From Candidatus Bipolaricaulota bacterium (lineage in GTDB: Bacteria > Bipolaricaulota > Bipolaricaulia > UBA7950 > UBA9294): DNA of 64,000 bases. Positions 240-64,000 of this stretch are shown here, one piece after another (the first letter of the stretch is position 1; every line of letters begins with the position of its first letter). The notes below the pieces were generated by a model. That model searched no databases and was not told the DNA's origin. It saw only the letters and a program-made list of their open reading frames with translations. Both the position numbers and the translations under genes were made by a program. The stretch lies in the NCBI GenBank assembly GCA_023132915.1, contig JAGLXM010000075.1, forward strand, positions 1,165 through 65,164. Direction: 5' to 3'.

Positions 240-660
240 CGTACTCTACCCACTACCGAGGTGTTCCATGACCCATGACCCATCACTCACCGCCCTTGGA
301 CTGTCGACTATTGACTCAAGACTCCCGACTGTCTTGATCACCGGTGACTATCAGGAGTATTATGATAAGGTATATGGCAGGGAGTGAATGAGCTTGATTA
401 GAGCGGTAGGGCAGTTAGGCACTGGCCGCTAGCGGCAAGGTAGCAATCAGTCGTCAACACTTAGCCTATTGCTTAAAGCTGATAGCTAAAAGCTTTAACC
501 CAATGAACCCCTGCCCCGTGCAATGACGGAAAATAGATTATTTCACGGGGCTACGAACTCCATGAACCCAACAAGCCACGAACTACGCACTGCAAACTAC
601 CAACCACAAACTGAGAACCAGGAACTCCGGACCCTGGGCATCGGACTGAATGGGTGCGTG
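240..660. repeat. Composite low-complexity intergenic region made of short 7-9 nt periodic word arrays
   Basis: 267-291 catgacc catgacc catcact cacc. 475-496 aaagctgatagctaaaagcttt. From 551, ctacgaac tccatgaac ccaacaagc cacgaac... These are reverse-complement relatives of the modules at 61378-61550 and 63501-63760. Confidence 0.6.
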
Positions 661-781
661 TAATGAGTGATTTGTGATGGCAACGAGCGAAAAACTGAGG
701 AATCACAAGGATTTGAAGACTGGAGGGGTAATTCTGTTCTCTGGCGTAGATATCGGTATTGCAGAGACCTGAAAAGAAAAC

Positions 782-1646: not shown

Positions 1647-1669
1647 GACCGATGACCGAGGACAGGTGA
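1647..1669. repeat. Left arm of the inverted repeat bracketing the four-helix-bundle ORF
   Basis: GACCGATGACCGAGGACAGGTGA (heptamer-periodic GACCGAT/GACCGAG/GACAGGT) pairs at 19 of 23 positions with 2044-2066. Confidence 0.65.
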
Positions 1670-1679
1670 CCGAAAACAG

Positions 1680-2974: not shown

Positions 2975-3046
2975 TGACGTATGAGGTAGTATCATGCCAC
3001 CGCTTGTTGCAGCTAGAATTTTGTGGGAGATGGAAGGTGAATTCTG

Positions 3047-3125
3047 ATCCGCAATTCACATTTCGAAACTGCCGTTTTCCTCTTGCGATTCGAAATTCGC
3101 TTTTCGCAATTCGAAATTGGAGCTT
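3047..3125. repeat. Low-complexity repeat upstream of wzt (GCAATTCGAAAT-type words)
   Basis: ccgcaattcacatttcgaaa .. gcgattcgaaattcgc ttttcgcaattcgaaattgg, with repeated TTCGAA cores just 5' of the wzt start. Confidence 0.45.
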
Positions 3126-3179: not shown

Positions 3180-4535
3180 ATGAGTAACAATATTGCCATC
3201 CGTGTTGAGAACCTCAGCAAACGCTACCGCATCGGCCAATACGTCGGCAGCGGTGCGCAATACAAGACCCTGCGCGAGAGCCTGACCAATGCTGTCTCCG
3301 CGCCCCTGCATTGGCTACGCCAGACAGGAGACAGAAGACGGAAGACCGATCTCCCGTCGCCAGCCCCCCGTCTCCGGTCCTCTGTCGCCGGTCAGCCGTC
3401 TACCGACGGCTACATCTGGGCCCTCAAGGACGTTTCTTTCGAGGTGGGACACGGCGAGGTGGTGGGCATCATCGGTAGAAACGGTGCGGGGAAGAGTACG
3501 CTTCTAAAGGTGTTGACCCGTATCACGGAGCCCACCGAAGGGCGGGCGGAGCTAAGCGGCCGTGTGGGGAGTCTGCTGGAAGTAGGGACGGGATTTCACC
3601 CTGAACTCACCGGGCGAGAGAATGTATACTTGAGCGGTGCGATTCTTGGGATGGCACGAAAAGAGATTGATCGGAAGTTTGACGAGATTGTCGACTTCTC
3701 CGGAGTGGAGAAGTTCATTGATACGCCGGTCAAGCGCTATTCCAGCGGTATGCGCGTCAGGCTCGGGTTTGCGGTGGCTGCCCACCTGGAGCCGGAGATT
3801 CTATTGATAGATGAAGTTCTGGCGGTGGGAGACGTAGCGTTCCAGAAAAAATGTCTAGGGAAAATGGAAGATGTGGCCCGGGGTGGCAGAACTGTGCTTT
3901 TTGTGTCACATAATATGGGCATGATAACCATTCTCTGTGAAAAAGCGATATTACTAACGGAAGGGCGTATTGACTTTATGGGGCCAGCTCAACAGACCGT
4001 AAGCACGTATTTGGCTAACTTTAGCGCAGATGCTGGCCTGAAAAGGAGATGGAGTTTTGAAGAAGCCCCTGGCGAAGAGAATGTCAAAATAAGAAGCGTT
4101 GCGATAACTGATCATCTGGGTATTGAGAAACCGTATTTTTCGACCGCTGAACCGATATTCGTTACGATAGAGTATTGGGTTTTAGCTGATGACATTCCAG
4201 TCAACGTAGGATTCAGTTTGCTTGACAAAGAAGATAATTGGGTTTGTGCGGTCGGCAATTATGAGGAGACAAGATCAAAGCCAATTCGAAAGAGTGGATT
4301 ATACAGGTCGAAATGCACAATTCCTGGGAATTTGTTGAATAGTGGCAGGCATTCAATCACAGTGACGGCAGTAAGAAATCTTACAGATCTTCAGGTGAGA
4401 ATATCTCATTGTGTTGCCTTTGAAGCAGTGGACGATCGTCGAGTTCACCCGTACTCTGGTAGATGGGGAGGAATTATAAAACCCGAATTTGAGTGGCATA
4501 GCGAGAAGGTTGGCGATGTTGGAGGAGAGGAATAG
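3180..4535 (+). CDS. wzt: O-antigen/polysaccharide ABC exporter ATP-binding protein Wzt with C-terminal carbohydrate-binding-type extension
   Basis: 451 aa. Walker A GRNGAGKST, signature YSSGM, Walker B LLIDEVLAVGD, then ~180 aa of beta-rich C-terminal domain (..VKIRSVAITD..FVTIEYWV..NVGFSLLDKE..). Confidence 0.9.
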   Translation: MSNNIAIRVENLSKRYRIGQYVGSGAQYKTLRESLTNAVSAPLHWLRQTGDRRRKTDLPSPAPRLRSSVAGQPSTDGYIWALKDVSFEVGHGEVVGIIGRNGAGKSTLLKVLTRITEPTEGRAELSGRVGSLLEVGTGFHPELTGRENVYLSGAILGMARKEIDRKFDEIVDFSGVEKFIDTPVKRYSSGMRVRLGFAVAAHLEPEILLIDEVLAVGDVAFQKKCLGKMEDVARGGRTVLFVSHNMGMITILCEKAILLTEGRIDFMGPAQQTVSTYLANFSADAGLKRRWSFEEAPGEENVKIRSVAITDHLGIEKPYFSTAEPIFVTIEYWVLADDIPVNVGFSLLDKEDNWVCAVGNYEETRSKPIRKSGLYRSKCTIPGNLLNSGRHSITVTAVRNLTDLQVRISHCVAFEAVDDRRVHPYSGRWGGIIKPEFEWHSEKVGDVGGEE

Positions 4536-32090: not shown

Positions 32091-32592
<502 letters not shown>

Positions 32593-34424
32593 CTGGCCCG
32601 ACTTTGACAACGCCAAACGAGAAGTGCTGTTCCGAAGGGCAATACAGGGATCGTCAAGGTCGCGTGGCACTACGCTTTGGGTCAGCGAGCGTCTCAGTCG
32701 AGTCGTTCGATCCGTCGAGGAGGGACGATCTTCAGCGCCTGGAACGCTGCCATGCTGACAGCGGGGATCTCGTCGCGCATTCGGTAGCGGCTTCCGTTGC
32801 CGTCATCTAGCACCACCGCCCGCACCCGCGACAGTCCCTCCATTAGCTCGACGAACGACCCGTCGAACGATCGCTCCGCCAACCGCTTCTTGAGGATCTG
32901 CCGTAGGATGAACGCGAGGAAGCAAACGGTGATGTGCCCACGGACCCGTTGCGCGGTCCAGTGGTAGATCGGACGAAGCTCCAGCGGTGTCTTCAGCATC
33001 CGGGACGCTTCCTCCACCTGCCACAGCCTCTTGTACGCCACCGCCGCCTCGGCAGCCGTCAGTCGGGCGTCGTTGGTCCGTAGCACCCACTTCCCGTCGT
33101 AGCGAGCATCCGCTTCGATCTTCCGTCGATCGAGTGATGCTCCACCGGCCTGGGTCCGTACGTACCGCCGTGCCGCTCCTCGCAGCAACCCCTTCACCGA
33201 TCCCGTCTCCAGGCGCTTGCTGAGCATCTCAACGATCGCTTCCCGTTCCCGTCGGTCCGCCTCCACCGCCTCGGGGTTGCGACAGACGATGTAGCGGTCC
33301 TCGACATCGGGAAGGTCGACCTCTTTCACCTCGAGGTTGTCGGCGACGGTGTGGTAGCGTCCCGAGTGGGACAGGACCTCCTGGGCGACCTTGTCTCGTC
33401 GCAGCTTCGTCGCCACCAGGTACGGCATCCCAACTTCACGCAACGCTTGCAGGTTCGCCTCGGTCACCATCCCACGATCACAGCAGAGCATCACTCGTTT
33501 CACTCCGAGCGTCTCTCGTACCGCCTCAACCGCCAGACGAAACGCTGAGGGGTCGGCGGTGTTCCCCGGGAAGATCACGTGGGCCACCGGAAGTCCTTTC
33601 CTCGTCATTACCACCCCCAGGCCGACTTGCCGTCGATCCCCGCGGTGATCTCGCGAGTAGCCAAACGCTGCCAACTCCTCGGGGTGGGTCCCTTCCACGT
33701 ACGTCGAAGTGGTGTCGAAGTACAACAGATCGGTGTCGGTGAACAGATCCCGATGACGGGCGAACCATCCCGCCTCGACGTCATTCTTCACCTCGGCGAG
33801 GCGATCGAGTGAGCGGTACAGATCGTGCAGTTCGAGATCGTCAAACGGCGCACCGTAGACGTCGTCGCGGAAGCGCAGCGCAGCGCACTTCGATCCCGGA
33901 TCGACCAGTCGATGCAGCACCATCAAGTAGACAGCATCCGCCTGTCGTTGCGTAAGTCCGGCGTCCTTGATGATCGGAGCGAACGTCTCCATCCACAAGC
34001 GCCCCCACACCAGCGAAGCTCCCCAGATCCGTGTCTCCACTCTGGATCGATCGCTGAGGAGGATCGATTCGAGCTCGGCGTAGCGGTTCGCAGTCTCTAC
34101 CAGCGAACCGAGACCCTTGCGCAGCCGTGGATCGTCAGTCCGTCCCAGTGTGGCCAGCACCCGTTGGCGGGTCTTTCCATCGACGCGGCGGTTCTCGACG
34201 AGTTGGAGGTAGGTGGTAACGGTGCCATCCTGGTTGCGTCGCTTCTTCTCGCGGATGAACATGACACCTCATGATACCACACATTCATCAGGCAGAGAAG
34301 GGGACATCCATCACTAACGTGGCACCACAAAGCACCTCTCAAACGACCCTCGACACTACCGAAACCCAGTTCCCTTGGCATCGAGGTATCCAGAAAGCGC
34401 CGATTCTTGTCAAAGTCGGGCCAG
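32593..34424 (-). mobile_element. IS1634-family insertion sequence with perfect 18-bp terminal inverted repeats
   Basis: CTGGCCCGACTTTGACAA at 32593-32610 and its exact reverse complement TTGTCAAAGTCGGGCCAG at 34407-34424. Single 522-aa transposase inside. Visibly GC-richer than its surroundings. No matching flanking direct repeat seen. Confidence 0.85.
32694..34262 (-). CDS. IS1634-family (IS4-like DDE) transposase
   Basis: 522 aa. N-terminus MFIREKKRRNQDGTVTTYLQLVENRRVDGKTRQRVLATLGR is typical of IS1634 transposases. Confidence 0.9.
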   Translation of the reverse strand: MFIREKKRRNQDGTVTTYLQLVENRRVDGKTRQRVLATLGRTDDPRLRKGLGSLVETANRYAELESILLSDRSRVETRIWGASLVWGRLWMETFAPIIKDAGLTQRQADAVYLMVLHRLVDPGSKCAALRFRDDVYGAPFDDLELHDLYRSLDRLAEVKNDVEAGWFARHRDLFTDTDLLYFDTTSTYVEGTHPEELAAFGYSRDHRGDRRQVGLGVVMTRKGLPVAHVIFPGNTADPSAFRLAVEAVRETLGVKRVMLCCDRGMVTEANLQALREVGMPYLVATKLRRDKVAQEVLSHSGRYHTVADNLEVKEVDLPDVEDRYIVCRNPEAVEADRREREAIVEMLSKRLETGSVKGLLRGAARRYVRTQAGGASLDRRKIEADARYDGKWVLRTNDARLTAAEAAVAYKRLWQVEEASRMLKTPLELRPIYHWTAQRVRGHITVCFLAFILRQILKKRLAERSFDGSFVELMEGLSRVRAVVLDDGNGSRYRMRDEIPAVSMAAFQALKIVPPRRIERLD

Positions 34425-41452: not shown

Positions 41453-41535
41453 TTAAGTAGGAAAATAGTTGAGTGGTTATGTGGGGCAGTGGAACTATTC
41501 AACGATTTAACTAATCAACCACTTAACTAATCCCA
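41451..41535. repeat. Imperfect palindrome of GTTRAGTRG words immediately 5' of the four-helix-bundle pseudogene
   Basis: agttaagtaggaaaatagttgagtggttatgtgggg ... ttaactaatcaaccacttaactaatccc. The two arms are reverse complements (tagttgagtggtt versus aaccacttaacta). Confidence 0.65.
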
Positions 41536-41536
41536 G

Positions 41537-41911
41537 ATGAAATCGACGTCGACCTTTGAAGATCTCGAAGTCTGGTAAAAGGGAAGAGAGTTAAGGAAAG
41601 ACTTTTCGCAATTAGTCAGGCGACTTCCCCCTGATGAGAAGTTTCGACTAGCCGACCAGATTCTCCGTGTCTCGCGATCGGTTACGGCCAACATAGCCGA
41701 AGGATACGGCAGGTTTTACTATCAAGAGAACATCCAGTTCTGCCGTCAGGCCAGAGGCTCATTGTTTGAGTTGGTGGATCACCTTACTGTAGCCTTTGAC
41801 GAGGGTTACGTCGATGAGGAGAAGTTTGGAGGGTTTAGAGAGCGAGTCTTCGAGATTATTCGTATACTAAATGGCTATATCAAGTATCTGAAAGGAAGGA
41901 AGAACAGTTGA
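41537..41911 (+). pseudogene. Four-helix-bundle protein gene (23S rRNA IVS protein family) with an in-frame TAA at codon 14
   Basis: MKSTSTFEDLEVW*KGRELRKDFSQLVRRLPPDEKFRLADQILRVSRSVTANIAEGYGRFYYQENIQFCRQARGSLFELVDHL.. . Absent from the ORF track because there is no Met after the stop. Confidence 0.8.
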
Positions 41912-41920
41912 GGACAACAC

Positions 41921-42040
41921 AGTCGAGTGGGAAAATGGTTAAGTGGTTATGTGGGGGAACGGTCTTACTTGACTACTCAACTACTCGACAATTTTACCTT
42001 GCACTGCTTTTCCCTACTCGACTACTTAACTACTCAACTC
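41921..42040. repeat. Imperfect palindromes of GTTRAGTRG words 3' of the four-helix-bundle pseudogene; right terminal inverted repeat of the insertion
   Basis: gtcgagtgggaaaatggttaagtggttatgtggggg .. cttacttgactactcaactactcgac .. gcttttccctactcgactacttaactactcaact. 41927-41961 is a direct repeat of 41457-41491. Confidence 0.65.
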
Positions 42041-42051
42041 TGTGCTCATAG

Positions 42052-43056
<1,005 letters not shown>

Positions 43057-59267: not shown

Positions 59268-59499
59268 GTTTTCCCGAGATGCGCCTAAGAGGAAGGTCCT
59301 TAAAGCTTTCAAGGAGCTGAGGTTTGAGATCGTTAGAGAGGCTGACCACATTGCCCTCAGGCGACATAACCCTGATGGGTCCACGACGCCGATGACCATC
59401 CCCAACCATCGAACCTATAAAAGCAGCACCCTGCGGGAGATCTTGACTCAAGGCAGAATTCCCAGGGATGACTTTCTAACGGCTTACTACAAATCATGA
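59260..59499 (+). CDS. hicA: HicA-family toxin (YcfA-like)
   Basis: 79 aa. ..KRKVLKAFKELRFEIVREADHIALRRHN..MTIPNHRTYKSSTLREILTQGRIPRDDF. Overlaps hicB by 8 nt and the capD-like start by ATGA. Confidence 0.7.
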   Translation: MSKFSRDAPKRKVLKAFKELRFEIVREADHIALRRHNPDGSTTPMTIPNHRTYKSSTLREILTQGRIPRDDFLTAYYKS

Positions 59500-61352
59500 A
59501 TATCGCAAAACGATTGTTCCAAGAGACGCGCCGAACGCGGGCTATGTTTTTCCTGCTTGCGGATATTGCTCTCGTTGCTCTCTCCATGACGGTGGCCTTC
59601 CTCTTAAGGTTTGAGGGACGAATCCCTTCACAATACATGGAGGACCTTTGGATTCTAATCTTGATCGCCATGGCAGTGAAGATCCCCGTCTTTTACCTCC
59701 AGAGGCTCTATCATATCAGTTGGTCTTACGTAAGTGTTCGGGAACTAATGTCGGTCTTTAAGGGGGGCTTCTACAGCTCCCTTCTTCTGGGGACGGCCCT
59801 CTTCATCCTGAAGGCCACCCCTAAGTTTATCGGCTTTCCTAGATCTATCCTGTTCATCGATTTCTTTCTGACGGTTACCTTAATTGGGGGCTTCCGCGCG
59901 GCCAAGCGGGTCTATCTGCAGTTTGTCAAAAGGTTCCCCATGGAGGGGCGAAGGACCCTGATCGTCGGTGCCGGGGATGCGGGGGAGCAGCTCCTGCGGA
60001 GTATGCTCAAGTCCGGCCATAGCGATTACCTTCCCGTGGGATTCGTCGATGACGATCCGGCCAAGCTTTCGACCTCAATCCAAGGGATCAAGGTATTGGG
60101 TACAAGAAAGCAGATTCCCCAACTTGTAGAAGCTTATGACATTGAAGAGCTGTTGATTGCTATACCGTCTGCCTCCTCCAAGGTCATCAAGGAGACGGTT
60201 GAGATAGGCAGGAAGGCCAAGGTAAAGTCGATGAAGATCCTCCCTGATATAAGCAAGATCCTTTCTGGTAGCGTGGGCTTAGCCAATGTGCGAGAGGTTA
60301 GGTTAGAGGATCTTTTGGGGAGGGAGCCGGTCAAGATCGATACCCAGGAGATCAAGAGCTATTTGAAAGATAAAACCGTTCTGGTCACCGGAGCGGCCGG
60401 TTCCATCGGCTCGGAGCTCTGCCGTCAGATCGCCAAGTTCCAGCCTCGAAAGCTCCTTATGTTGGATCATGAGGAGACGGGGCTCTTTAAGATCGAGCGG
60501 GAGCTTAAAGAAAAATTTCCCGGGATGGAGCGTATTGCGATATTAGGGGATATAAGGGATGAGGGGAAGATGGAGAGAGTCTTCACCCAATACAAGCCAG
60601 AAGTGGTCTTTCATGCTGCTGCTTACAAGCATGTGCGGATGATGAAGGAGCACCCCGATGAGGCGGTGAAGAATAACATCTTTGGCACAAAAGTCCTGGG
60701 GGAGACCGCGATCACGGCCGGGGCAGAGAAGTTCATCTTGATCTCCACGGATAAGGCGGTCAACCCGGTTGGAGTGATGGGGATGTCCAAGCGGGCCGCG
60801 GAGATGGTCATCCAAGACCTCAACCAGAGAGGGGTGACCAGGTTCTCGGCGGTGAGATTCGGGAACGTCCTGGGCAGCCGCGGGAGCGTGATCCCGATCT
60901 TTAGGGAGCAGATCAAGAAACGTGGTCCGGTGACGGTGACCGATTCCCGGATGCGCCGTTACTTCATGATGACCTCTGAGGCTGTCCTTCTGGTCTTACA
61001 GGCGGGAGCCATAAGCGAAGGGGGGGAGATCTTCGTTTTGGATATGGGGGAGCCGGTGAACATCCTGGACCTCGCCCGGGAGATGATCAGGTTGTCAGGA
61101 TATGAGCCGGATACGGATATCCCCATCACCATTACCGGCCCCGGTGAGGACGAGAAGCTCTTTGAGGATATCCTGACGGCGGAGGAGGGTACCGAGGCCA
61201 CTAAGTATGAGCAGATCTTCATTGCCAGGATGAACGCTGGGCTCTCTTCAGCGGAACTGTCGAGGCACTTAGAAACCCTTGAGAAGCTGGTCGAACAAGA
61301 GAAAGACGCGGGTGAGATCAAAGAGGCGCTTAGGGGGATAGTGGGGGGCTAG
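59496..61352 (+). CDS. Membrane-anchored polysaccharide biosynthesis protein CapD/WbpM/PglF-like (UDP-HexNAc 4,6-dehydratase)
   Basis: 618 aa. Four N-terminal TM helices, then ..VLVTGAAGSIGSEL.., ..AAAYKHV.., ..STDKAVNP.., ..VRFGNVLGSRGSVIP.. . Confidence 0.9.
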   Translation: MNIAKRLFQETRRTRAMFFLLADIALVALSMTVAFLLRFEGRIPSQYMEDLWILILIAMAVKIPVFYLQRLYHISWSYVSVRELMSVFKGGFYSSLLLGTALFILKATPKFIGFPRSILFIDFFLTVTLIGGFRAAKRVYLQFVKRFPMEGRRTLIVGAGDAGEQLLRSMLKSGHSDYLPVGFVDDDPAKLSTSIQGIKVLGTRKQIPQLVEAYDIEELLIAIPSASSKVIKETVEIGRKAKVKSMKILPDISKILSGSVGLANVREVRLEDLLGREPVKIDTQEIKSYLKDKTVLVTGAAGSIGSELCRQIAKFQPRKLLMLDHEETGLFKIERELKEKFPGMERIAILGDIRDEGKMERVFTQYKPEVVFHAAAYKHVRMMKEHPDEAVKNNIFGTKVLGETAITAGAEKFILISTDKAVNPVGVMGMSKRAAEMVIQDLNQRGVTRFSAVRFGNVLGSRGSVIPIFREQIKKRGPVTVTDSRMRRYFMMTSEAVLLVLQAGAISEGGEIFVLDMGEPVNILDLAREMIRLSGYEPDTDIPITITGPGEDEKLFEDILTAEEGTEATKYEQIFIARMNAGLSSAELSRHLETLEKLVEQEKDAGEIKEALRGIVGG

Positions 61353-61377
61353 CAATTGCGGTTTACTTGATGTAGGG

Positions 61378-61497
61378 GTTCATTGAGTTCGTAGGGTTCA
61401 TTGGGTTCGTTGAGTTCATTGAGTTCGTAGGGTTTATGGGGTTCGTTGAGTTCATTGAGTTCGTAGAGTTGGTGGAGTTCATTGGGTTCGTAGGGTT
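61378..61497. repeat. Tandem array of about 13 degenerate 9-mers (GTTCRTWGR)
   Basis: GTTCATTGA GTTCGTAGG GTTCATTGG GTTCGTTGA GTTCATTGA GTTCGTAGG GTTTATGGG GTTCGTTGA GTTCATTGA GTTCGTAGA GTTGGTGGA GTTCATTGG GTTCGTAGG. Followed by a GAGTCGG-type heptamer module at 61507-61545. Confidence 0.9.
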
Positions 61498-61670
61498 AAA
61501 AACACTGTCAGGAGTCGGGAGTCCAGAGTCGAGTGCCGAGATTCAATGTTCACTAGATTTTCAAGCTAGATAGAAGGATTTGAACTAGGGAAACTGGACG
61601 TGGTAAGATAAGTTTCCAGGGATGGTAGAGATTAGGATAGAATATCGTGAATCGGCGGAGGTGGGAAAGT

Positions 61671-61889
61671 ATGTCTGATCAGGTAGATCTTGGAACACTC
61701 CTTAAGCGGGTTGATTCCTTGGAAGGGGAGATAGGGCGGCTTAAGCGCGACTTGCTCCGCAGTTTAGTAGTCCAGCCACGGGGAAAGAAGGTGAAATCCT
61801 TGTTTGGTAGTGTACAGGGCGGTGATGTGACTGAAGAGATGATTGAGGAAGCGAAGCGGACCCTGTTTCGGCCCCTGGAAGACTTGTAG
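61671..61889 (+). CDS. Small coiled-coil protein, putative VapB-type antitoxin
   Basis: 72 aa from ATG 61671 (RBS ggaggtggg). Ends 5 nt before the PIN gene. Confidence 0.5.
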   Translation: MSDQVDLGTLLKRVDSLEGEIGRLKRDLLRSLVVQPRGKKVKSLFGSVQGGDVTEEMIEEAKRTLFRPLEDL

Positions 61890-61894
61890 ATCGT

Positions 61895-62293
61895 ATGGAA
61901 GAGCCGACGCTTTATGTTCTCGATACCCATGTGCTCATCTGGTACTTCATCGGGAGTAACCGTCTGCGGCAGAAGCTCAAAGAACGCATCGATAAAGCTC
62001 GCCGACGAGGCGGTCGCCTGTTGGTTCCGACCATCGTGTTATCCGAAGCGCTGGATGTCGCTGAAAAGGGTCGAGTAGAACTGGATTTTGCTGGGATGTA
62101 TAGGTTGATTCGGGAGGAACCGGAGTTTGAGATTGTCGGCTTTGGGCCTGACGTTTTTGAGGAAACGATGCGAATCAGGGAGATTCAAGAGATTCACGAG
62201 CGGATCATCGTGGCTACAGCCAGGTTTTATGAAGCAGGGATGCTAACAAAAGATCGAATCATCCGTGACTCAGGAGAGGTTGAAACTCTATGA
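61895..62293 (+). CDS. vapC: PIN-domain ribonuclease toxin (VapC-like)
   Basis: 132 aa. ..LYVLDTHVLIWYF.., ..PTIVLSEAL.., ..IHERIIVATA.. acidic PIN residues. Confidence 0.8.
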   Translation: MEEPTLYVLDTHVLIWYFIGSNRLRQKLKERIDKARRRGGRLLVPTIVLSEALDVAEKGRVELDFAGMYRLIREEPEFEIVGFGPDVFEETMRIREIQEIHERIIVATARFYEAGMLTKDRIIRDSGEVETL

Positions 62294-62583
62294 TCATGTA
62301 CTGTTTTAACTCTATAAGCTCTGCATAGCAGCGCTGAATCGGCGGGCTCTTGAGTCTTCCCATGTCTGTGGGGTCATGCCTTGGCACTGACCGTTGATCG
62401 CTGAATGCTGATGGCGAAAGCCAAAAGCTTATTGCTTGAAAAGGAAAGGCCATGATCGTTGCCCCGTTTTTTGTGTCCTTGCTTGTGAGCTTCTTTTGCG
62501 TTCCGATTCTGATCACCCGGTTAAAACGAGCGGGGATCTCCGGAAGCGACATCCATAAGTCTAGCTAGCCGCGTGTCTCCGAG

Positions 62584-63501
62584 ATGGGCGGGCTGGCGAT
62601 CGTAGTGGGGTTCGGTTCCGGGATTTTGCTTGCGGTCGCGTTGGTAAGCTTCTTTCATGTTTTCCCTTCGGTAAACCTAGTCGTCTTGCTGGCGGTGCTC
62701 TCTACCGTCCTGTTGGCTGGGCTGATCGGGATAGTGGATGACTTGCTTGGGGGGTGTAGTAAGTCGAATCCAGTTACTACACCCGCCTCGGAGAGTGTAG
62801 TAAGTTCCAAACCGACTACTACACCCCCCGAGGGCATGCGGCAGTGGATGAAGGCACTGTTGCCGGTGTTCGCGGCGTTACCGTTGATGGCGGTGCGGGC
62901 GGGGCATACGTTCATGAAGATTCCGTTTGTAGGGACGCTCAACTTCTGGATCTTTTACCCCTTGGTGTTGGTTCCCGTGGGGGTGACTGTCGTAGTAAAC
63001 GCGGTGAACATGCTCGCTGGGTTCAACGGCGTGGAGGTGGGACTGGGAATCGTCGCAATAGGAAGCCTATCGATCATCGCCGCCATCCTGCATGAGACCA
63101 CCGCGCTGATCCTTCTTCTCTCCGGCCTGGGCGCGCTTCTTGGCATTATCTACTTCAATTGGTATCCGGCGAGGATCCTGGTGGGAGACGTGGGAACGCT
63201 TTCGATTGGGGCCATCATCGCCACCGCGGTGATCGTGGGTAACTTCGAGACAGCGGGTGTGATCGTGATCATCCCATATGCGATCGATTTTCTGTTCAAA
63301 GCAGTGCACCGCTTCCCTACGAGTTTCGGCGAGCTCCGTGAGGATGGGAAACTGCATTGTCCTGCGGAAGGGCCTGTGGGGTTGGGGCAGTTCATCATGA
63401 AGGTAACGCGTGGAATTCACGAGCGGACGCTAGTCGTTACGTTGATGGGGATTGAGGCGATTTTCGGGCTAGTAGCTATTGCGTTGTATGTGTGGAGGTG
63501 A
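62584..63501 (+). CDS. Glycosyltransferase family 4 polyprenyl-phosphate HexNAc-1-P transferase (MraY/WecA/WbpL family). The first TM segment is separated by an in-frame TAG, and it carries a 90-nt in-frame palindromic insert.
   Basis: ..GIVDDLLG.., ..NAVNMLAGFNGVE.., ..LVGDVGTLSIGA.. . The in-frame upstream segment 62452-62565 (MIVAPFFVSLLVSFFCVPILITRLKRAGISGSDIHKSS) ends at TAG 62566-62568. Confidence 0.8.
   Translation: MGGLAIVVGFGSGILLAVALVSFFHVFPSVNLVVLLAVLSTVLLAGLIGIVDDLLGGCSKSNPVTTPASESVVSSKPTTTPPEGMRQWMKALLPVFAALPLMAVRAGHTFMKIPFVGTLNFWIFYPLVLVPVGVTVVVNAVNMLAGFNGVEVGLGIVAIGSLSIIAAILHETTALILLLSGLGALLGIIYFNWYPARILVGDVGTLSIGAIIATAVIVGNFETAGVIVIIPYAIDFLFKAVHRFPTSFGELREDGKLHCPAEGPVGLGQFIMKVTRGIHERTLVVTLMGIEAIFGLVAIALYVWR
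62746..62835. repeat. 90-nt double palindromic element inserted in frame in the GT4 transferase CDS
   Basis: Hairpin 1: gggtgtagtaa (62752-62762) with ttactacaccc (62774-62784), a perfect 11-bp stem. Hairpin 2: gtgtagtaagt (62795-62805) with actactacac (62815-62824). Encodes GGCSKSNPVTTPASESVVSSKPTTTPPEG. Confidence 0.85.
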
Positions 63502-63760
63502 GGAATAGCTGTCAGCAGTCAGCGATCAGCAGTCAGCATCTAGCTAAAGGCTGATGGCTGAAAGCTGGTACACGGTGATGAGTGAGGAGGGGCTGGGTTC
63601 ATAGGGTTGATAGAGCCCATTGTGTTCGTTGAGTTAGAAAATAGTCAATCCTGTGGGGAATGGCCTGGAAGCAGTGATGGGTAATGGGTGATGAGGCTCA
63701 GGGGAGGGATTGAAGGATTACGGATCAAGGTCAGTCTCTAGCCTGTAGATTCTGGACTGA
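63501..63760. repeat. Composite low-complexity region (heptamer-periodic modules) downstream of the locus
   Basis: gtcagca gtcagcga tcagca gtcagca; aaaggctgatggctgaaagctgg; gggttcatagggttgatagagcccattgtgttcgttgagtt; gtgatgggtaatgggtgatgagg. Same word families as 240-660, in the opposite orientation. Confidence 0.65.
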
Positions 63761-63955
63761 GGACTCCTTAGCAATCTTGGCGGCTTGAGTCAGTACTAAC
63801 GAGCGGGCGGGAGAACAGTATTCTATCATTTCCGGTAAGGGGTTCGCTACTGATACTAAACACCAAAAGAGCGCAGATCTTCACGCCACAGGTGGCCACT
63901 GAGTTTTGACATGAACTACGCATTCTGCTAATGTGAGTAGATTCTTAGGAGGAAG

Positions 63956-64000
63956 ATGCCTATGAAGTCTGGAGTGATCGAAGAAATCGAGCGTTACGTG
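63956..64000 (+). CDS. Start of an unidentified CDS running off the window
   Basis: ATG 63956 preceded by aggagg. MPMKSGVIEEIERYV.. . Too short to classify. Confidence 0.3.
   Translation, partial: MPMKSGVIEEIERYV

Follow-up and report, generated by a model that had tools for sequence, protein, structure and literature searches.

Short-period intergenic repeats at the edges of a glycan gene cluster in a Candidatus Bipolaricaulota bacterium

When short repeats of the same kind stand at both ends of a gene cluster, do the two ends form a matched pair that delimits the cluster? This question is raised by a glycan locus of a Candidatus Bipolaricaulota bacterium (GCA_023132915.1), for which we analyzed a stretch of 64,000 nt (the window, positions 1165-65164 of contig JAGLXM010000075.1, here C328). 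A first-pass annotation of this DNA had proposed that inverted copies of one composite repeat family, built of modules with periods of 7-9 nt, bracket about 61 kb of glycan genes and may mark recombination boundaries. We concluded that the repeats are ordinary copies of a genome-wide, multi-phylum intergenic class, with no matched pair of ends. On balance, we think it probable that they represent cassette-associated, dispersed patches of a short-period intergenic repeat class that is found throughout the lineage, with the roles proposed below. The assembly comprises 2.49 Mb in 354 contigs with 54.5% GC; it is fragmented, 91% complete, and has an estimated contamination of 7%. Coordinates without a contig label refer to the window. 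The labels C17, C58, C165, C181, C189, C218, and C328 denote contigs of this genome (G000), G152:C68 belongs to another genus, and L-numbered loci are contigs outside this assembly, either strain metagenome contigs or contigs from other phyla.

For a genome-wide census, arrays were counted strictly as chains of exact 4-mers at a fixed period, and Tandem Repeats Finder (TRF) was used additionally. Chains of at least four copies with period 7 were found 41 times in intergenic and 10 times in coding DNA, corresponding to a 22-fold excess in density in intergenic DNA. Periods 5, 6, 10, and 11 gave only 0-1 chains of at least four copies. TRF reported 72 intergenic arrays with period 7 and 50 with period 8. 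The 110 intergenic period-7 arrays with at least three copies were located on 34 of the 354 contigs, among them C17 (29 arrays), C58 (20), and C328 (11). The most common family was TCAGCNN/GCTGANN, and rarer families were GACT/AGTC, ACCAT, octamers of the GAGTGATT type, and GAAC nonamers. On C328, 10 of 35 spacers contained strict arrays, compared to 89 of 1343 spacers on all other contigs (p = 9e-5). The word families are, therefore, not spread uniformly through the intergenic DNA but cluster at cassette-rich junctions. An assembly artefact due to contig breaks at repeats was rejected, since 15% of the arrays lie within 300 nt of contig ends, as do 16.8% of all intergenic bases.

The components of the class are heptads with a core of 4-5 nt and 2-3 free bases, one nonamer family, and two travelling modules, namely a promoter-like site (P) and a hairpin of about 40 nt (H). 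The arrays occupy the flanks of small accessory cassettes, which encode toxin-antitoxin (TA) systems, the PF05635 four-helix-bundle "IVS protein" (IVS, intervening sequence), or Uma2, and they also occupy gene-less cassette relics. Genes at a distance of up to 300 nt from an array were shorter than others (median 174 versus 259 amino acids, p = 1e-4). The checked neighbors of arrays included DUF433, three PIN proteins, a ribbon-helix-helix (RHH) protein, an MNT-type nucleotidyltransferase, ParE, TumE, and Uma2. All eleven PF05635 matches of the genome were located on contigs rich in arrays, and for seven of them, the distance to an array was at most 150 nt (p = 9e-7).

On C328, the strict arrays fell into a left zone (position -557 relative to the window, 266-494, and 3089-3113, to which TRF added 1647-1679), a middle zone (41473-42107), and a right zone (61378-61530, 63512-63567, and 64620-64677). 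All but two weak arrays of the contig were found within these three cassette zones, and the spacers between the glycan genes were nearly free of arrays. The two PF05635 genes of the contig are located at 1680-2090 and at 41558-41875 (C328:42722-43039). A PIN protein is encoded directly to the left of the 5' patch, and a TumE toxin is among the products of the genes that directly follow the 3' patch on its right. The bracketed look of the glycan block comes from the cassettes, which have piled up at its left end, at 41-42 kb, and at its right end.

The association extends beyond this genome. TCAGCNN in four tandem copies was present in 24 of 184 genomes of the phylum, distributed over 10 of 54 genera, and a control with the reversed pattern gave almost no hits. 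PF05635 genes were present in 19 of the 24 genomes with this array and in 68 of the 160 genomes without it (odds ratio 5.1, p = 9e-4, uncorrected for phylogeny). In other phyla, including Acidobacteriota, Verrucomicrobiota, Chloroflexota, Planctomycetota, Bacteroidota, and Cyanobacteria, 120 contigs carried TCAGCNN in five copies. We also considered PF05635 as a constant neighbor of the TCAGC arrays in these phyla. This was rejected, and no other family recurred except open reading frames (ORFs) derived from the arrays themselves.

The 5' patch occupies the spacer 37-781 upstream of the ABC-2 gene wzm and is a mosaic of dispersed modules, not of tandem repeats alone. The unit of GACT heptads and P occurs in two copies each on C189 and C181, and overall, five genomic copies are conserved. 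In three of these five copies, P precedes a cassette gene, twice DUF433 and once a pair of RelB-like antitoxin and ParE-family toxin. In the window, no coding sequence follows for 400 nt downstream of P. Parts of the block that contains P, the GCT heptads, and H are 86-94% identical to three sites on C181, a neighbor contig of C189, and 75% identical to G152:C68. A segment of about 37 nt (399-436, AGAGCGGTAGGGCAGTTAGGCACTGGCCGCTAGCGGC, with the palindrome GCCGCTAGCGGC) is present in the window and in the strain locus L172 and is absent from the otherwise collinear copies on C189 and in L173; this segment is a small indel module inside the dispersed block.

With a covariance model of H, we obtained seven matches at six sites of this genome, and copies were found in 16 of the 184 related genomes, representing 10 genera; the three genomes of the same genus gave no match. 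Units of the sequence CNAYGAAC flank H in 16 aligned copies from eight genomes. In an alignment fitted to the model, and with copies that are related to each other, 97.7% of the stem cells were paired over 38 distinct copies, with 27 G.U pairs, four double changes, and seven unpaired cells. G.U exceeded A.C in the stems (p = 8e-4), which suggests selection on the RNA of the GAAC strand of H. Rfam gave no match at E <= 1 in 1-900, including H, or in 61300-64000, and H is a small structured element that is new to Rfam.

Where TCAGCNN and GCTGANN arrays of opposed orientation are adjacent, they have a fixed polarity and read 5'-(TCAGCNN)n ... (NNGCTGA)n-3'. This was the case for 10 of 10 pairs in this genome, including the one after the GT4 (Glycos_transf_4) gene of the window, and for 12 of 13 pairs in other phyla, together 22:1 (p = 6e-6). 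The fold consists of 5-bp helices with small internal loops between them. The hairpin of the window has a predicted folding energy of -31.9 kcal/mol (z = -3.8 versus mononucleotide shuffles). In TRF-defined TCAGC arrays, the variation was restricted to two adjacent columns (combined p = 4e-4). Palindromic duplication was tried as the origin of the hairpins and rejected: the free NN bases were complementary at a fraction of 0.32 in cognate arms and 0.42 in non-cognate arms. Since complementarity in cognate arms is no higher than in unrelated arms, the hairpins are not simple palindromic duplications. At C17:2816-3949, TCAGC arrays of about 15 units are followed by two fragments of PF05635 genes, a copy of H (3043-3106), and GCTGA arrays. 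This region resembles a PF05635 cassette that has decayed between opposed heptad arms.

Do the two ends nevertheless bracket the locus? The modules described in the first-pass annotation are present, and the same word families occur at both ends; the observation was confirmed in part. The GCTGA array at 63540-63567 has the same orientation as the heptads at 470-497; it directly adjoins the inverted TCAGCNN copy at 63507-63538, and together the two form a local hairpin. The supposed NNNNNGAAC 9-mers at 551-630 are spaced by 9, 16, 14, 14, 7, and 7 nt and are thus mostly heptamer-phased. The order of the modules, D-B'-C-A'-D' at the 5' end and A-B-[TA]-C-[GT4]-C'-C-D'-A-D'-B' at the 3' end, is no mirror image. 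When positions 240-700 were compared with the 3' regions, the best inverted matches had a length of just 11-22 nt, which is below the usual need of homologous recombination, and no collinear inverted repeat was found. By blastn (E <= 1e-3), neither end matched the other end, and both matched other contigs of the genome. The same families were also found inside the supposed bracket (1647-1679, 3088-3118, and 41473-42107) and outside of it on both sides (-557 and 64620-64677). Neither the collinear identity of the ends nor the confinement to boundaries that terminal inverted repeats would require was thus observed.

Comparison of strains also addressed this question. We used fourteen metagenome contigs that encode Wzm at 88-92% identity. 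The DNA upstream of wzm fell into at least six unrelated contexts, and the differences extended to within a few tens of bases of the wzm start. About eight of the fourteen loci, representing three of the six contexts, had no such arrays, and two loci had a transposase upstream of wzm. In L179, seven GAAC nonamers directly follow an fcl-like gene. The two arrays at the left of the 5' patch, CCATGAC and GACT, and also P are present in L172 and L173 as in the window. The CCATGAC array is identical in both strain loci, and copy numbers of the CCATGAC and GACT arrays are equal in all three sequences, which differ by base substitutions, also within the cores. A difference in copy number between strains, as expected for phase-variable simple sequence repeats (SSRs), was, therefore, not seen for these arrays. 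L172 lacks the region of the window from 437 to 614 with the H block. In L168, L169, and L174 (Wzm 89-92% identical), hairpins of the form GTAGCGTCGGGGC...GCCCCGACG, which are GTAG-headed and similar to repetitive extragenic palindromic (REP) sequences, take the place of the heptad arrays upstream of wzm. At the other end of the locus, the Polysacc_synt_2 gene (59496-61352) has its best orthologue (77%) in a genome of another family-level group, and genomes of the same genus have at most 51%, which suggests lateral exchange of glycan genes. Synteny with the best orthologue is lost at the stop codon (61,330-61,352), immediately before the position at which the nonamer array begins here.

The junctions are thus real rearrangement hot spots, which agrees in part with what the first-pass annotation had proposed to look for in a comparison of strains. 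However, exchange does not require the arrays, and their occurrence is not restricted to the two ends of the 61-kb block. What is marked is a single small cassette and not the glycan locus. Two further observations would fit an exchange or inversion of the whole locus between terminal boundaries: the break of synteny before the nonamer array, and the composition of the arrays, which are mostly C-rich on the left (5:1) and G-rich on the right (1:7; Fisher p = 0.026, with arrays within one spacer not being independent). Set against the short inverted matches, the unmirrored order with one module in direct orientation, the better matches of each end to other contigs, the copies within and beyond the block, and the strain junctions that lack arrays, they leave it very unlikely that a single composite repeat stands in inverted copies at both ends and delimits the locus.

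How the modules may act can be proposed from these observations. P together with the adjacent heptads would serve as promoter or operator of a cassette, and H would act in the transcript of the GAAC strand. The opposed TCAGCNN/NNGCTGA arrays may form interrupted hairpins at gene ends that function as 3'-end, stability, or insulation signals, as suggested for the hairpins of cyanobacterial short tandemly repeated repetitive (STRR) sequences. Arrays would grow by slippage and by block duplication; direct evidence for block duplication comes from the nonamer array, whose 13 copies are organized in higher-order units of 18 and 36 nt. Junctions with arrays would be sites at which cassettes and gene blocks are gained and lost, and the two ends of the locus would not interact with each other.

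Several results weigh against this proposal. A PF05635 gene was found within 1.5 kb in just 3 of the 120 TCAGC loci of other phyla. Relative to co-directional genes, the arrays showed no sense-strand bias (31 G-rich versus 23 C-rich, for TCAGC 12 versus 12). The predicted local folds of the 5' and 3' patches lacked significant stability (z = -1.7, -1.7, and +1.1; among them the fold of 205-715 with -1.7 and the nonamer array, which does not fold alone, with +1.1), and stable folds of the patches, long-range or local, were rejected. The GACT cores mutate between strains at a rate close to the background, evidence against a strong constraint on this array. Adjacent spacers throughout the genome had 38 direct and only 14 inverted matches of 20/24 or better. 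Gene calls were the longest non-overlapping ORFs and are crude, and the counts of genomes and copies ignore phylogeny and kinship. A function of the arrays in the sense of the transcript was rejected due to the missing orientation bias.

Other explanations account for parts of these data. Complementary arrays around a cassette could pair in the operon transcript, and the resulting stems of the RNase III type would excise or insulate the cassette RNA, comparable to the ORF-bearing intervening sequences of 23S rRNA. Candidate pairs exist around the GT4 gene (62387-62415 with 63507-63538) and around the TA and GT4 genes (61510-61541 with 63737-63768). On C181, a PF05635 gene (3883-4263) is preceded by GGTAGTN arrays and followed by ACTACNN arrays. 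Co-occurrence of arrays with PF05635 genes was described above, and in Coxiella, the RNase III site of the IVS contains heptamer repeats (PMC4990558). However, in-register arrays of the same family are about 79% complementary by construction, and the 88% over 25 nt and 72% over 32 nt of the two candidate pairs are unremarkable. TCAGC pairs that enclose genes were inverted in eight and direct in five cases, without an inverted preference. Since direct matches outnumber inverted ones also in adjacent spacers, the nested inverted pairs around GT4 and around TA plus GT4 are not clearly above the baseline of the family, and a general enclosure of cassettes by complementary arrays was rejected. The low complementarity of the free bases in cognate arms and the 5' spacer, which has no remnant of a PF05635 gene (see below), also speak against such stems, and we regard them as unlikely. 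The variation in only two adjacent positions and the 22:1 polarity toward the center, as for oriented half-sites, would also be expected if the heptads were iterated DNA or RNA sites of a small oligomerizing protein, by analogy to omega/ParB of pSM19035. Such a protein could be an antitoxin or regulator of the RHH type, or it could be encoded by the PF05635 genes. In the parS of this plasmid, at least four contiguous heptads of mixed orientation form the functional unit (PMC9499535), the contiguous GACT heptads abut the -35 hexamer of a conserved promoter-like site, and RHH and other DNA-binding antitoxins adjoin the arrays. Yet one genome contains many cores without a one-to-one link of core and protein family, P precedes either DUF433 or the RelB-like antitoxin/ParE-family toxin pair, the TCAGC arrays have no constant neighbor, and the cores drift between strains. 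We regard binding of the heptads by such a protein as unlikely.

The arrays could also be neutral by-products, that is, SSRs made by slippage that decay in dispensable spacers and have neither a function nor a real tie to cassettes. An excess of heptanucleotide SSRs is general (Mrazek 2007, as cited in PMC4679880), 58 of 128 arrays from other phyla were perfect repeats, and the block duplication in the nonamer array, the lack of strand bias, and the mutation of cores between strains are all compatible with neutral growth and decay. Such a process does not explain the polarity that is fixed across phyla, the concentration of variation in two columns, the strong clustering beside cassette genes on few contigs, or the conserved non-repeat modules P and H embedded in the arrays, and we consider it quite improbable. 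A wider hypothesis would unite several of these elements: heptads and H would be signals that delimit and process the RNA of a family of small selfish operon cassettes (PF05635, TA, or the far more numerous gene-less relics) across phyla, and each subunit of an oligomer, formed by PF05635 or a different small protein, would recognize one heptad. We give this a low probability; if true, it would provide one explanation for the bacterial heptanucleotide repeats (STRR, TAACTGA, and the Geobacter sites), a puzzle for decades, and for the orphan PF05635 family.

The reading as cassette-associated patches of a dispersed repeat class remains the one we prefer, and Table 1 lists the modules to which it applies.

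Table 1. Repeat modules and associated elements of the window
Feature	Position	Strand	Basis and remarks
CCATGAC/CCATCAC heptad array (module D)	266..292	+	TRF 266-283, 2.6 copies, 100%; period-7 segment 261-296
GACTNNN x5 heptads, abutting the -35 hexamer of module P	299..333	+	exact 4-mer chain, 5 copies at period 7 (C328 1463-1494)
Promoter-like TTGATC-N18-TATTAT (module P)	334..363	+	consensus scan: 2 sites versus 0.5 expected
Dispersed block (about 260 nt) with P, the GCT heptads, and hairpin H	300..558	+	84% identical over 259 nt to C189:1951-2178(-)
GCTNNNN x4 (AGCTGAT/AGCTAAA) heptads	470..497	+	census segment 477-494; overlapping palindrome 473-498
NNNNNGAAC / NNNGAAC repeats around H	497..630	+	seen in sequence
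Hairpin H, arms GCCCCGTG and CACGGGGC around a 23-nt loop, within GAAC repeats	513..551	+	inverted repeat
GTGTAAT-GAGTGATT-TGTGATGG G-rich array	655..680	+	complementary to 266-292; inverted repeat 273-289 with 664-680, 17 nt, 82%
Internal GACCGAT-type heptads between wzm and PF05635 gene	1647..1679	+	TRF
Internal arrays around PF05635 cassette	41473..42107	+	octamers 41473-41492, 41966-41985, 42014-42034; GAAC nonamers 42062-42107, in the orientation of the 5' end
Nonamer array GTTCNNNNN / GTTCRTWGR, 12.7 copies	61375..61497 (TRF 61376-61491)	+	TRF periods 9, 18, 36; 36-nt unit 89% matches
GAGTCNN heptads (B)	61510..61541	+	72% complementary over 32 nt to 63737-63768, near family baseline
GCTGANN heptads upstream of GT4 gene	62387..62415	+	88% complementary over 25 nt to 63512-63536; in-register family baseline about 79%
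TCAGCNN x4.6 then NNGCTGA x3, interrupted hairpin right after GT4 stop codon	63507..63567	+	TRF; TCAGCNN part 63507-63538, GCTGA part 63540-63567
GGTGATGAG, GGGTTCNNN (63595-63640; GGGTTCATAGGGTT from 63595 onward), and GTGATGGGTAATGGGTGATGAGG (63676-63698) arrays	63567..63698	+	TRF, sequence comparison
GGACTNN-type array (B')	63737..63768	+	inverted-repeat matches

The nonamer array starts 23 nt past the stop codon of the Polysacc_synt_2 gene, and its variation is limited to three columns (p = 0.001). Within the hairpin after the GT4 gene, GGCTGATGGCTGAA is located at 63548-63561. Downstream of it, arrays of GGGTTCNNN, of the GTGATGG type, and of GGACTNN extend to 63768. The GT4 gene itself contains two copies of a hairpin repeat of about 42 nt (GGGGGGTGTAGTAAGT...ACTACACCC, 62746-62835). 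In the interior of the locus, which is otherwise encoded on the plus strand, an ALIL pseudoknot of Rfam (RF01497, 75.9 bits) was detected at 32492-32608 (-) between the ORFs 32165-32566 (-) and 32694-34262 (-). This family is the frameshift signal of the IS3 type, and the site is probably an insertion sequence within the glycan cluster.

Several known systems resemble these repeats. The canonical STRR units of filamentous cyanobacteria differ in sequence from the units found here (TCAGCNN, GACTNNN, and CCATGAC). The resemblance to STRR that the first-pass annotation had pointed out nevertheless holds in a weaker form: period 7 predominates, many copies are scattered over the intergenic DNA, several unit families exist, and some opposed arrays form hairpins, like the hupS-hupL hairpin of STRR (PMC2670836). 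The function of STRR hairpins is described as unexplained, with a suggested role in transcript stability (PMC2670836). Unlike in STRR, the units are degenerate, with a core and free bases, and the arrays are tied to TA and PF05635 cassettes, and the host is not a cyanobacterium: a PF00124 photosystem reaction-centre gene was not found in this genome, which is 91% complete. Heptamer repeats of Nostoc affect the expression of recF and recO (bioRxiv 10.1101/2022.06.06.494920).

Heptanucleotides are the most common class of long SSRs in prokaryotes. In Geobacter metallireducens, multicopy heptanucleotide elements consist of five tandem MTYCTGA units, are mostly paired, and were described as "global regulator binding sites"; paired GGACCGG repeats are likewise known from Geobacter (PMC2700814). 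TAACTGA repeats are known from Beggiatoaceae, Cyanobacteria, and Bacteroidetes, where they are located just upstream of start codons in one orientation (PMC4679880). Our arrays share with these elements a heptamer core that contains CTGA, 4-6 tandem copies, the intergenic location, pairs on both strands, and a patchy distribution over phyla that suggests horizontal spread. In contrast to them, the core is GCTGA, accompanied by the unrelated GACT, CCATGAC, and GAAC, and strand bias is lacking, while TAACTGA has one orientation. TCAGCNN in five copies was also seen within ribosomal-protein operons of Acidobacteriota contigs (L075, L060, and L090, next to L22, L4, L2, and S19). In Beggiatoaceae, TAACTGA repeats have similarly been reported from operons for ribosomal proteins.

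With REP sequences, the bacterial interspersed mosaic elements (BIMEs), and the REP doublets (REPINs) of enterobacteria and pseudomonads, the repeats have in common short intergenic hairpins, inverted pairs of fixed polarity (the 10 of 10 and 12 of 13 pairs described above), mosaics, and a position at gene ends. They are periodic heptads, whereas REP/BIME elements are built of a single palindrome of 20-40 nt. This genome has seven Y1_Tnp matches. One of them, on C218 (3150-4450; 290-aa frame), is similar to REP-associated tyrosine transposases (RAYTs) and is flanked by 43-nt inverted repeats with GGGGTCAGACCTTCATTC. On C165, this motif occurs as a tandem repeat of 31 nt; it represents a separate REP-like family in the genome. 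Membership in the REP/RAYT system was rejected, as the one Y1_Tnp gene of seven that was examined is flanked by the GGGGTCAGACCTTCATTC repeat and not by heptads.

In the S23p IVS of Coxiella, the RNase III site contains GACAGAT heptamers (PMC4990558). PF05635 genes adjoin arrays also on our contig, and AGACAGR heptads (3.6 copies) with the nearly identical unit AGACAGA (3322-3346) are present in the 5' part of wzt (3315-3358). In contrast to the Coxiella IVS, the repeats are not located in rRNA, and a PF05635 ORF between inverted arms was not found in the two terminal regions. A decayed PF05635 gene in the 5' spacer was also tried as a candidate and rejected: in tblastn searches of 150-800 and of the 3' spacers with three PF05635 proteins, no match exceeded the chance level (E >= 0.06). 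For the heptads of pSM19035 omega (ParB), of which at least four units are needed (PMC9499535), the common features are contiguous 7-bp units in direct and inverted orientation beside promoters. The five GACTNNN units next to the promoter-like site of the window, an arrangement that is kept in the further copies, have this form. Different from omega are the many cores and the arrays at gene 3' ends and between operon genes.

We concluded that the arrays represent the known, STRR-like class of heptanucleotide repeats in another phylum, with sharper descriptive facts and without a new kind of system. To the problem of heptanucleotide repeats, the locus adds a hairpin polarity that holds across phyla, a conserved unit of promoter-like site and heptads, and the element H, which is absent from Rfam. 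None of these additions alone is surprising enough to change a field. The tempting reading of a 61-kb surface-sugar island framed by terminal inverted repeats is removed. It is replaced by a testable picture of a variable glycan locus in which small cassettes with repeat-rich flanks gather at either edge and at a single position in the interior.

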